From assembly GCF_041248615.1 (NCBI RefSeq), contig NZ_CP158425.1: a stretch of DNA of 64,000 nucleotides; one strand, written 5' to 3'. The position numbers are program-made. The DNA is from Escherichia coli. Lineage in GTDB: Bacteria > Pseudomonadota > Gammaproteobacteria > Enterobacterales > Enterobacteriaceae. The stretch's first letter is position 1. The number at the start of each line of letters is the position of its first letter. This document shows positions 42,001-45,000 of this stretch, in pieces.

Positions 42001-45000
42001 TATTCATTTTTGCAAATAAAAACCGCCAGACGGCGGCTTTTATAAAGAGGGAAATATCATTGGAAGCTGAAATTACTTCACGGCAGGCCGACAAATTACG
42101 CGACTGCTGTGAGCTGAAGCGAAACTTGTAGAGGAAACTATAATCACCTTTTCTAAGTCGTCGGCACTGTCGGCAATATGATGCCGAAAAGCCTCCTCTG
42201 CATCACCAGGGGAATCGGCTTCGACCGGGTAGGCCTGATCATCATCATCAAACATAATGCGCCCGGAAATGAGATAAAGTCGGCTCAAATCTGGCGTCGC
42301 TGCGCTCGTGCTTCGTTCGTTCAGATTCATTTTTTCTCCGTCTGTTGCTCGTAAAAAGAATGACGCCGGTTTAAAAGGCGTCGCCAGGGTTCAGGCTAAA
42401 ACGCAGGGTTGCCATCGAGGAAGCTCATTGGCTGGCCAATAGCGGATGCCACCCTGAGAATTTCACCTGGTGTGGCATAGCGCAGCATTTCTGAGCGTCC
42501 AAATTTCTGATACTCATCTACTGACATCTTTCTCCACTCGGGGTGAGGATCTTTTCCGCACAGTGACCAGTTGCTTTCAGAGGAATCACGACGGAGAACG
42601 TACACATCAAGCGAGGCTGTAAGCCCGCTTCCATATCCCCGCTGCGCTACAATACGAACCTGAGAACCATCGTCGCGTTGCAACGTCTGGGTTAATTTCG
42701 TGATAGGATCCTGAGAATGCATGCCATTTACCTCGTTTTTAAAAGAATTACCGTAAGTAAATGATACCGAATCGAGAATTCTGGCTAATAGGTCAGAAGA
42801 AAAAATATTGCATATTTTTGAAGTGTAGGATAATGATTAGAATAAAATGGCCTGAATAAATCGTTAGCTTTAACTCTGCTTATTTCAGAAAAACTCTGAA
42901 TTAGTAGTGATGGAAAACGACGCGGTGAAAAGTAACTTTTACACCGCAATTCAGAAAAAAGTTTCAGTTAGTCACATTACGAATAACCCGGCTTACTTTC
43001 GCATGTGCGTTCCCCTGCATGTTAAAGTAAAGCCCTCCGGGCAGACTCGTCGCCCACTTAACGCCTCGCTCAGCCATACGCTTCGGTGTTTCCAGCCAAC
43101 CACGAGGAATATTGCCCGGAACGTTACCGATAACCCGTCAAATGCATGCTGCTACCCGGATGCCGCCGGGAATATCGCATTTGGATTCAACAATATGCAT
43201 GACCTCAGATAAAGCACCATGCCGCTGGACATGATCGCCAATGTGCAACTCGATAGGAGAAGCCATTTCTGAATCTGACTTCATATCTGTCCACCTTTAA
43301 TTTAGAAACCGTCTAAATTACCAAATTAGTTAATCCAACAACATCTGTATCACAACCATCAATTTGTTTTTGTTGGGTCTATATCGTAGAAACAAGTGAA
43401 TAATGAATACACTCGTTAATACAGACAACCGGAAATGAATGACTACCTGATTATCTCAGCGGTATATGCTAAGCCGTTAATATTGCCATTCTCTGGTGGA
43501 ACCACTGCTAAATGAATAAACCGTTTGTCGCTTCAAACCACTTTATCAAAACCGTTAACTTGCATTAAGTCCGATACAGTTCGGCGAGCTCATCCAGCAT
43601 GGGGTTACTCTTATATCCCGGTGCGGCCGTAAAAAGGTTTCGGGAAATCGCCAGCCACTCCATGATTTTGTCCGTCGCCAGCCAACGTCTGCCAAGTCGC
43701 TCGGCTGCGATGGGGACTTTATGCAAGCCAGCGAAGGGATCTACAACAAGATCTCCCGGCTCTGTCAAAAACTCAATCAGAAACGCTGCAAGCCTGGTAG
43801 GAGACGTTGCACCGTGCAGCGGAAAACCGAGCTCGCGGGCAATGGAATGGCAAAATCTCGTATCAGCGCAGCTATTGCCGTAAAACAAAGTATTCTTGGG
43901 GATCGTTCCTTCTGTTTTATTTCCAAAGGAACCGCTTTTAAGCTGGTACGCCCCATCACCATAAAAGGTCGTGCGATTTTCACCGCCTGCTGCCTGCAAT
44001 TTTAGATGCTGGTCTGAATGCGGTTGTAGTACACGTAAGTTGTTTGAACGAACCTTACTCGCATCATTGGTAAACCACAGCACAGGCTCATACGATGAGC
44101 AGAGCTGCACCCGTTGCTTACATGCCCAGTGCGTTGGCGATGGGGGCTTACTGCGATTCACCCACTGAAGCCTGTCCATGAGCTCAAGCCCCAGCTTGTC
44201 ACATAATGCCAGTGTCAGACGCTCCAGATACAGAGAACGTGAAGGCCTACCCCTATTAAAGCTATCTTGAGTGATATTCAATGCCACACTTGCGCCCGGT
44301 ACAAGCTGTTTCACGATCGGTTCGAGGATACGCAGAAGCCAGTCAATATAAGCCTGCTCGCCACGCCCCCCTCCGTGCCCGTAGTCTCTTGAATTTCGAA
44401 GGAGGTAAGGTGGCGAGGTCAGGCAAAGATGAATTTGCTCGGTGATATTGCTGAAGAAGGCATAGGCGTTTCCAAAAACCGATGCCCCAAGAGAAGTTGA
44501 GAAACCGACAACACAGAGCTTTTCCCATGACTCATGCAGGTTTGTTTTCGTCTTAGAGGCGTATCTCCAGACGCCCCGTTTTTCTGGAACGCGTTCGATG
44601 ACCCCGGCCTGACGGAGAGTCTGCTGAAACCAGCGAACCTTATGTTTGACGCCGCTGGTTCTGGTTTTATCTGACCCAAATTCTTTCAGTTCGTGCAATT
44701 CGGCATCCGACATGCCAGTTTTACGCTGCACTTCGCGATAAAGCTCGTCGTTGGTCAACGGCGATTCGGAGGCAGCGTAGATATGCGCAATTAAGTCCGT
44801 ATTAATCGTACTCATCAGCCATCCTAATGGGGATACAGTTATTATATCGGCCTGATGGTTGGAAGTGAGATTACTAAATCAGACCGATCTGGTTTGTTGA
44901 AGACTTTGCCAAATCATGCAGCACAGCTGGGCTTGCACAGAGCGAGCCGGGCTCCTTTAGCGGAGACACCTTCGCAAGTTGGATTAATCAGCCTCAAGAT

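Follow-up and report, generated by a model that had tools for sequence, protein, structure and literature searches.

A winged-helix-fused, PvuII-like orphan methyltransferase of IncHI2 plasmids with a derived cofactor loop

Results

Gene and domain architecture

A single open reading frame (ORF) on the minus strand, at 43565..44815 of a 64,000-nt stretch of Escherichia coli DNA (contig NZ_CP158425.1 of assembly GCF_041248615.1; hereafter the window, to which all positions refer), encodes a protein of 416 amino acids plus stop, with an ATG start and an AGGA about 8 nt 5′ of it. The protein, WP_000104323.1 in RefSeq, is labelled 'site-specific DNA-methyltransferase'. A previous sequence-only reading of the window had described it as methyltransferase-like, with an intact SPPY motif and the motif order and flanks (DPFAG ... 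AAERLGRRW) of beta-class amino-methyltransferases, and had singled out the loop for S-adenosylmethionine (AdoMet or SAM) as degenerate, perhaps the mark of an inactive pseudo-enzyme or of a different cofactor geometry.

Database searches and structure prediction confirmed the assignment to this enzyme class. Pfam PF01555 (N6_N4_Mtase) matches residues 128-390 with 78.5 bits against a gathering cut-off of 26.7, the alignment with M.PvuII (PDB 1boo) covers residues 105-392 (E = 2.3e-39), and PADLOC returns a match to MTase_II (type II methyltransferase, E = 1e-46). The AlphaFold2 (AF2) model, with 107 homologues in the alignment, has a predicted local distance difference test score (pLDDT) of 89 and a predicted template modelling score (pTM) of 0.82; its best PDB match in Foldseek is again 1boo (E = 2e-21, template modelling (TM) score 0.82), after which RsrI, CcrM, MboIIA and BceJIV are ranked, all of them beta-class. 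The motifs follow the order IV, target-recognition region, X, I and II, as in beta-class enzymes. At the N-terminus, residues 17-84 (44564..44767, minus strand) match the Mrr_N winged-helix model of Pfam at 29.6 bits (cut-off 29.5), an assignment that also draws on the helix/strand pattern of the AF2 model and on conservation; an RW(F/Y)QQTL helix within this domain (residues 61-67) is near-invariant among homologues. By sequence and model, the ORF product is a winged-helix domain fused to a PvuII-like beta-class amino-methyltransferase with the seven-stranded methyltransferase fold.

The individual motifs, all on the minus strand, could be placed on the DNA. Motif IV, S134-P-P-Y137 (44405..44416), lies in LTSPPY (residues 132-137, confirmed in the raw sequence) and is predicted from its sequence and homologue conservation to be catalytic and to bind the target base; S134 is present in 107/107 homologues, and P-P-Y/F is nearly invariant. 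It is followed by a Gly-rich insertion, H147-GGGRGE153 (44357..44377), which the alignment and the AF2 model place in the flexible active-site loop. Motif X, H334-G-A-T-S-P339 (43799..43816), was placed by alignment, with H, A and P conserved and H334 itself kept in more than 90% of homologues. Motif I, D359-P-F-A-G-L-H-K-V-P368 (43712..43741), was assigned from sequence, alignment and the AF2 model; VVDPFAGLHKVPIAAERLGRRW is present in the ORF, and D359-P368 was confirmed in the raw sequence at those positions. The acidic residue of motif II, D382 (43670..43672), stands at the end of beta-2, where it is predicted to contact the ribose hydroxyls of AdoMet; D or E occupies this position in 107/107 homologues.

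The motif I loop

Alignment with M.PvuII set the register of the loop, in which F361-A362-G363 / L364-H365-K366-V367-P368 face F-G-G / S-N-T-T-G. Measured against the canonical F-x-G / S-G-T-T, motif I retains its F-x-G core but has L-H-K-V-P in place of S-G-T-T-G, so that LHKV(P) stands for S-G-T-T(-G) and not for G-S-G-T-T. The departure from GSGTT noticed in the sequence-only reading is real, but its register was off, since the first Gly is present as the G of DPFAG.

Position by position, the ORF protein agrees with its homologues in the core, with F at 361 (104 of 107) and G at 363 (107 of 107). At 364, where it has L, the homologues have T (49) or S (41; S/T together 90), with L in 7; Ser is commonest at this position in the more distant representatives, about one tenth of which have W, R, Y or G. 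Position 365 (H in the ORF protein) is variable and is G in only 8 of 107. K366 agrees with a strong preference for a basic residue (K 71, R 29; K/R 100), V367 stands where T prevails (T 78, V 16), and P368 where G does (G 82, A 16, P 8). The winged-helix-fused family itself, with the consensus F-x-G-[ST]-x-[KR]-T-G, already departs from the textbook GSGTT at two positions: the second Gly is absent, as it is from M.PvuII, and Lys/Arg takes the place of the first Thr. The Lys/Arg at residue 366 (nt 43718-43720), found family-wide where M.PvuII and canonical beta-class enzymes have the first Thr, is an unexplained signature of the family. The loop of the ORF protein is atypical even within this family; set beside the solved, active enzymes that could be aligned, what has no precedent is that both Thr are gone (K-V) and that a Pro opens the helix.

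In the AF2 model the motif I loop lies between a strand (356-359) and a helix (366-373) with a pLDDT of about 97, and we infer that Pro in the first turn of this helix is structurally acceptable. A frameshift origin of the odd loop was rejected because both other frames carry stop codons there. A canonical Gly loop elsewhere in the ORF protein, which would have undone the notion of an altered one, was looked for and none was found; G-x-G recurs in just two places: in GHGGGRG (146-152), which is a lineage-specific insertion following motif IV, and in FYGDGAY (284-290), modelled by AF2 as a family-wide beta-hairpin in the target-recognition region.

Comparison with residues of known function

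The mutational data for M1.HpyAVI, in which F195, G197, D29 (motif IV) and E216 (motif II) are essential for AdoMet binding (PMC5173035), allow the loop to be judged residue by residue, with correspondences taken from our own motif alignment. F195, which stacks on the AdoMet adenine, corresponds to F361; G197, whose change to Ala abolishes binding, to G363; and the indispensable D29 (motif IV) and E216 (end of beta-2) to S134 and D382, respectively. H168, which contacts the AdoMet carboxylate, has its presumed equivalent in H334. All of these are kept. The altered positions of the ORF protein fall elsewhere: G199, equivalent to H365, can be changed to Ala with neutral effect, and S198 and T200, equivalent to L364 and K366, contact the carboxylate, and their replacement by Ala merely lowers activity (PMC5173035). 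On this alignment, equivalents of all the essential residues of M1.HpyAVI are present in the ORF protein, and H334 besides.

Active enzymes also tolerate part of what is seen here. CcrM reads FFGVGTTG, with Val where a segment alignment places L364, and M.PvuII reads FGGSNTTG, in which the second Gly of FxGxG is missing as well. In the light of these sequences 'degenerate' overstates the condition of the loop. The sequence-only reading had itself wondered whether its consensus was too strict, which was partly right: M.PvuII, CcrM and the neutral G199A of M1.HpyAVI all relax the consensus, but none of them accounts for the loss of both Thr. The alignment to characterised beta-class enzymes thus left a divided picture, with F361, G363, S134 and D382 kept on the one side and S-G-T-T read as L-H-K-V on the other, none of the four solved loops aligned residue by residue lacking both Thr.

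A derived loop under selection in the IncHI lineage

The LHKVP-type loop is limited to the IncHI2/IncHI1B lineage and five metagenomic relatives from an IncHI-like context (62-74% identity). Among these relatives the loop reads LHKVP, LHNVP, LCKVP or LFKTP, and in a further relative of 57% identity it reads YFKTA. Because such intermediate loops exist, the sequences suggest a stepwise path to LHKVP and not one inactivating event.

Between the two IncHI2 alleles, the nonsynonymous divergence (dN) is 0.011 and the synonymous divergence (dS) 0.107, giving an omega of 0.10; towards IncHI1B, dN is 0.09 and dS is saturated. L364, K366, V367 and P368, together with SPPY, are kept over seven lineages (62-100% identity) despite codon changes: L364 is encoded by TTG, CTG, CTC, TTA or CTA, V367 by GTC, GTT, GTA or GTG, K366 by AAA or AAG and P368 by CCC or CCG, and S-P-P-Y/F is likewise kept with varied codons. 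Of 153 family-conserved positions, 122 are retained in the altered-loop clade. With a dN/dS of 0.10, and with the loop residues persisting through synonymous codon turnover, the gene is not in decay, and purifying selection extends to the derived loop itself.

Most of the clade-specific substitutions at conserved sites fall in or beside the cofactor-binding motifs. Besides the loop positions 364, 367 and 368, they comprise P138 to L/M directly after SPPY, M337 to T/S and F/Q338 to S in motif X (T337 and S338 in the ORF protein), Y387 to W after motif II, and a Gly-rich insertion of 3-4 residues (148-150, in GHGGGRG) in the loop after motif IV. This insertion is an alignment gap in more than 95% of other family members and has the lowest confidence of the model (pLDDT 53). 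The adenosine-side and catalytic residues are unchanged in the clade. We read the pattern as a concerted rebuilding of the pocket at its methionine end, which would fit compensated AdoMet binding, the option we prefer, or a changed cofactor use, two outcomes that sequence data cannot separate.

Family and distribution

Of 72,556 public plasmids, about 1,050 carry the gene at 80% identity or more, and about 1,000 have an intact ORF. The family at large was detected by tblastn in 2,252 PLSDB plasmids, 1,884 of them typed conjugative, and homologues of the same architecture and length gave 959 matches at 90% clustering and 141 clusters at 50% identity (E < 1e-30). Amino acid identity to the ORF protein is 98-100% on IncHI2 plasmids, 86% on IncHI1B, 52% on large Klebsiella plasmids of the p11219-IMP type, 50% on IncC and 45% on Pseudomonas megaplasmids. 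The orphan arrangement in similar small-gene arrays recurs on IncHI1B, IncHI5, IncC, Pseudomonas and Ralstonia elements, and a further homologue, in a similar small-gene array and among IncC-like genes, lies on a 4.9-Mb contig. In Ralstonia pseudosolanacearum CP187587.1, the homologue is flanked by three H-NS-family genes (stretch 6785-9915).

A literature search found no study of any member of the winged-helix-fused family, and nothing relevant on WP_000104323.1, Mrr_N-fused methyltransferases or N4-methylcytosine (m4C) in IncHI2 plasmids; the published study of IncA/C methylases covers dcm1-3 only and not the IncC homologue of the ORF.

Plasmid context and neighbouring genes

Over the 3 kb surrounding the gene, the window matches large E. 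coli and Salmonella plasmids at 100% identity; a second allele, 96.8% identical over this stretch, is found mainly in Enterobacter, Klebsiella and Citrobacter. Plasmids carrying either allele are typed IncHI2/IncHI2A, MOBH and MPF_F, and the window is IncHI2 plasmid backbone. In pMCR_W5-6 the gene sits within a run of about 40 kb of mostly co-directional (minus-strand) small ORFs, between the Tra1 region (mobI, MobH relaxase, TraD) and repHI2, about 36 kb from the mobI/mobH intergenic region, the presumed origin of transfer (oriT), towards which it points. A 759-nt gap between divergent genes of the window (about 7271-8030), immediately 5′ of the MobH relaxase operon and a mobI-like gene, is the plasmid's likely oriT.

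No endonuclease is annotated within a few kb of the gene, whose immediate neighbours are without Pfam domains; because none adjoins it, we regard the gene as an orphan methyltransferase. No paralogue of the winged-helix-fused family was present in the neighbouring stretch examined. A search for sigma-70-like promoters on both strands of 43000-46200 gave 0 matches where 4.3 were expected, which fits transcription by read-through of the array or from a non-standard promoter. In several IncHI2 plasmids the match to the gene region is broken by insertion sequences (IS100, ISKpn26, IS5, IS903B), and three IncHI2 matches are annotated as split 'winged helix-turn-helix' and 'DNA methyltransferase' fragments.

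The adjoining upstream ORF (44984-45604, minus strand; 206 amino acids in the ORF listing, 202 in RefSeq) resembles a small class-I SAM-dependent enzyme, with a G-L-G-L-G motif, a match to PHROG 15480 'methyltransferase' (E = 3.5e-34) and weak matches to polyamine aminopropyltransferase models. IncHI2 has one copy of it; IncHI1B has two in tandem, of which the second extends over the methyltransferase start by 14 nt. Because it is missing beside five other altered-loop relatives, it was rejected as a functional partner that might account for the altered cofactor pocket. Further along the same co-directional array, a 794-amino-acid 'phosphoadenosine phosphosulfate (PAPS) reductase family protein' (about 37997-40381, minus strand), a homologue of which also lies 3′ of the methyltransferase in a metagenomic IncHI-like contig, may have a DNA-modification or anti-defence function. 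The window holds 40 copies of the hexanucleotide CAGCTG, a 2.5-fold over-representation relative to the 15.9 that dinucleotide shuffles predict, and one copy (44924-44929) falls in the 168-nt gap upstream of the methyltransferase start. This excess is probably an effect of the codon pair CAG-CTG, and the count was set aside as a clue to specificity or protection.

Published methylomes

Two published methylomes have a possible bearing on activity. For S. Senftenberg ATCC 43845, an IncHI2 host, only N6-methyladenine (m6A) motifs were reported. The gene copy on its plasmid pSSE-ATCC-43845 (NZ_CP016838.1) lacks one G from a GGGG run at nt 864 of the gene and is annotated as two fragments, and because of this 1-nt deletion the methylome says nothing on the intact gene. 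The strain was isolated in 1941; the missing G may reflect a real frameshift or a homopolymer error of PacBio sequencing.

S. Typhimurium CFSAN001921 carries a 221-kb plasmid with an ORF predicted by REBASE to recognise CAGCTG, and its log-phase culture gave five m6A motifs only and no m4C signal. The plasmid was considered as a test of the IncHI2 gene and rejected as such: it is IncA/C and bears only on a 50%-identical homologue. We infer that the CAGCTG-predicted ORF is most likely the IncC homologue WP_000098294.1, whose loop reads GSNKSG. If so, even a family member with a near-normal loop makes no mark in ordinary growth, which would point to conditional expression or non-standard activity as a property of the whole family and not to a defect specific to LHKVP.

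Discussion

Favoured interpretation and alternatives

With slightly more than even confidence, we interpret the gene as encoding an orphan N4-cytosine methyltransferase that is atypical yet active and has a role in plasmid establishment. Since selection has kept the unusual loop, the protein is probably functional as an enzyme rather than dead. AdoMet binding and DNA methylation would both persist: the adenosine-binding parts (F361, G363, D382) and the catalytic SPPY are intact, and of the contacts to the AdoMet carboxylate, where S..T-T has become L..K-V-P, K366 would plausibly pair with the carboxylate in place of the lost hydroxyls. In the usage of (D/N/S)PP(Y/F/W), a Ser-type motif IV goes with N4-cytosine chemistry, which is what SPPY predicts here. 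The enzyme would act mainly around plasmid establishment, shielding incoming DNA from restriction and/or marking DNA, and would not be a constitutive genome-wide methylase. Such a role around transfer is suggested by the array context on conjugative elements and by the enrichment of orphan methyltransferases in such regions; these enzymes form a prominent class of plasmid establishment genes (PMC11541004).

Several observations weigh against this interpretation. Where all four solved beta-class loops in the alignment have both Thr, the ORF protein has K-V, followed by a Pro. The methionine-end changes P138L, M337T/S, F/Q338S and the 148-150 insertion share the altered-loop clade, and the affinity for AdoMet or the geometry of its binding could be seriously altered. 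No methylation motif is assigned to the gene or to its IncC homologue in the methylomes found, and what is most likely that homologue gave no m4C signal in culture in spite of its near-normal loop GSNKSG. The occurrence of copies disrupted by insertion sequences shows that the gene is dispensable for plasmid maintenance.

Some of these points would suit a catalytically silent pseudo-enzyme, which we consider unlikely while taking it seriously. Such a protein would keep the fold, the SPPY pocket and the winged helix, would have no productive AdoMet binding and would act through DNA binding, occluding restriction sites or serving as a plasmid regulator or nucleoid-associated factor. The loss of every hydroxyl side chain from the loop, the accompanying changes in motif X and after motif IV, the very strong conservation of the winged-helix recognition helix and the position of the Ralstonia homologue among H-NS genes are all in keeping with it, as is the lack of a methylation motif attributed to the gene or the likely IncC homologue in single-molecule real-time (SMRT) methylomes. 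That silence, however, includes a homologue with a near-normal loop and so is not explained by the loop. A pure DNA binder would moreover have no obvious need of the cofactor-only residues F361, G363, D/E382 and H334, which are under purifying selection; the M1.HpyAVI equivalents of the residues lost here are not essential (PMC5173035); and known class-beta pseudo-enzymes erode motif IV (PMC7544214), which is invariant in this family. The headline of an inactive, degenerate pseudo-enzyme therefore stands as far as the departure of the loop from consensus is concerned, but inactivity is not the best-supported reading of a protein in which key residues, selection and motif IV are all maintained.

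Altered cofactor use or chemistry, whether another pose of AdoMet, a SAM analogue, the transfer of a group other than methyl, or action on single-stranded or transferring DNA that leaves no simple motif, appears improbable. The clustering of the changes at the methionine end of the pocket, with the adenosine end spared, and the family-wide Lys/Arg at the usual Thr position are what such a shift would look like, and plasmid methyltransferases that act on the entering single strand are known (M.EcoGIX, M.BceJIV; PMC7736820). Against it, the 206-amino-acid SAM-enzyme-like ORF that might have been a partner does not accompany the other altered-loop members, and an intact SPPY is more simply read as ordinary methyl transfer. 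That the gene is a decaying, non-functional relic still annotated as a gene is scarcely credible: interrupted or frameshifted copies do occur on some plasmids, but the dN/dS of 0.10 and the retention of motifs through synonymous codon turnover effectively refute decay, and intact ORFs are found in about 1,000 plasmids as well as in relatives of as little as 62% identity. A bolder thought, which we hold only tentatively and think doubtful, is that the family as a whole does not consist of ordinary site-specific methylases. Its members might be DNA binders, AdoMet-sensing or AdoMet-independent, with a shielding or regulatory role for the incoming plasmid; or they might be enzymes that work on transferring DNA only and hold the cofactor in a non-standard pose or transfer a non-standard group.

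Significance

The novelty lies in a cofactor loop that has been remodelled in one lineage, and maintained there by selection, within a widespread plasmid-borne family of orphan methyltransferases. IncHI2 plasmids are major carriers of mcr-1 and other resistance genes, and if the protein methylates DNA, its gene would be a candidate determinant of IncHI2 restriction escape in new hosts. An active enzyme would also be a natural example of drift in motif I with function kept, helping to call active and inactive methyltransferases from sequence; if no methylation takes place, the protein would be a rarity, a bacterial pseudo-methyltransferase whose catalytic motif is intact. In either case, a missing 'GSGTT' is by itself insufficient for calling a beta-class enzyme dead.

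Comparison with known systems

The closest characterised relative is M.PvuII, a cytosine-N4 methyltransferase (PDB 1BOO) that has the same beta-class motif order, a Ser-type motif IV (SPPF against SPPY in the ORF protein) and an alignment that extends across the whole catalytic and target-recognition region. It differs in having no N-terminal winged-helix domain and in its loop, S..T-T-G against L..K-V-P. M.PvuII is paired with R.PvuII and C.PvuII, whereas the gene described here has no adjacent endonuclease and is not a PvuII-type restriction-modification system; because identity is only about 26-30%, the CAGCTG specificity of M.PvuII is not transferable to the ORF protein.

Within the family, the IncC protein WP_000098294.1 and the IncHI5 protein WP_017901019.1 have the same two-domain architecture and length at 45-52% identity, are likewise encoded by orphan genes in co-directional small-gene arrays, and share the Lys/Arg at 366. 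Their loop is of the type G-[ST]-x-[KR]-T-G, in contrast to the L-x-K-V/T-P of the IncHI2/IncHI1B clade, which differs from them also at 138, 337, 338 and 387 and in the 148-150 insertion.

Functional parallels are offered by M.EcoGIX and M.BceJIV, the latter the second-best structural match to our model. Both are ParB-fused DPPY enzymes, whereas the ORF protein is winged-helix-fused with SPPY. They represent the orphan methyltransferases of plasmid leading regions, which are plasmid-borne beta-class enzymes without an endonuclease, M.EcoGIX being carried by pESBL, that are thought to shield entering DNA and that act on the entering single strand, leaving partial, asymmetric marks; the mark is m6A (PMC7736820), against the N4-cytosine methylation predicted for the ORF protein. 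The opposite outcome is represented by METTL14 and the ciliate MTA9, pseudo-methyltransferases of the same structural class (beta) that have lost catalysis, have become nucleic-acid-binding partners and depart from the motif IV consensus (D/N/S)PP(Y/F/W) with EPPL and NALW (PMC7544214). These are obligate partners of an active paralogue, in contrast to the ORF protein, in which motif IV is invariant and for which no paralogue is encoded in the neighbouring stretch examined.

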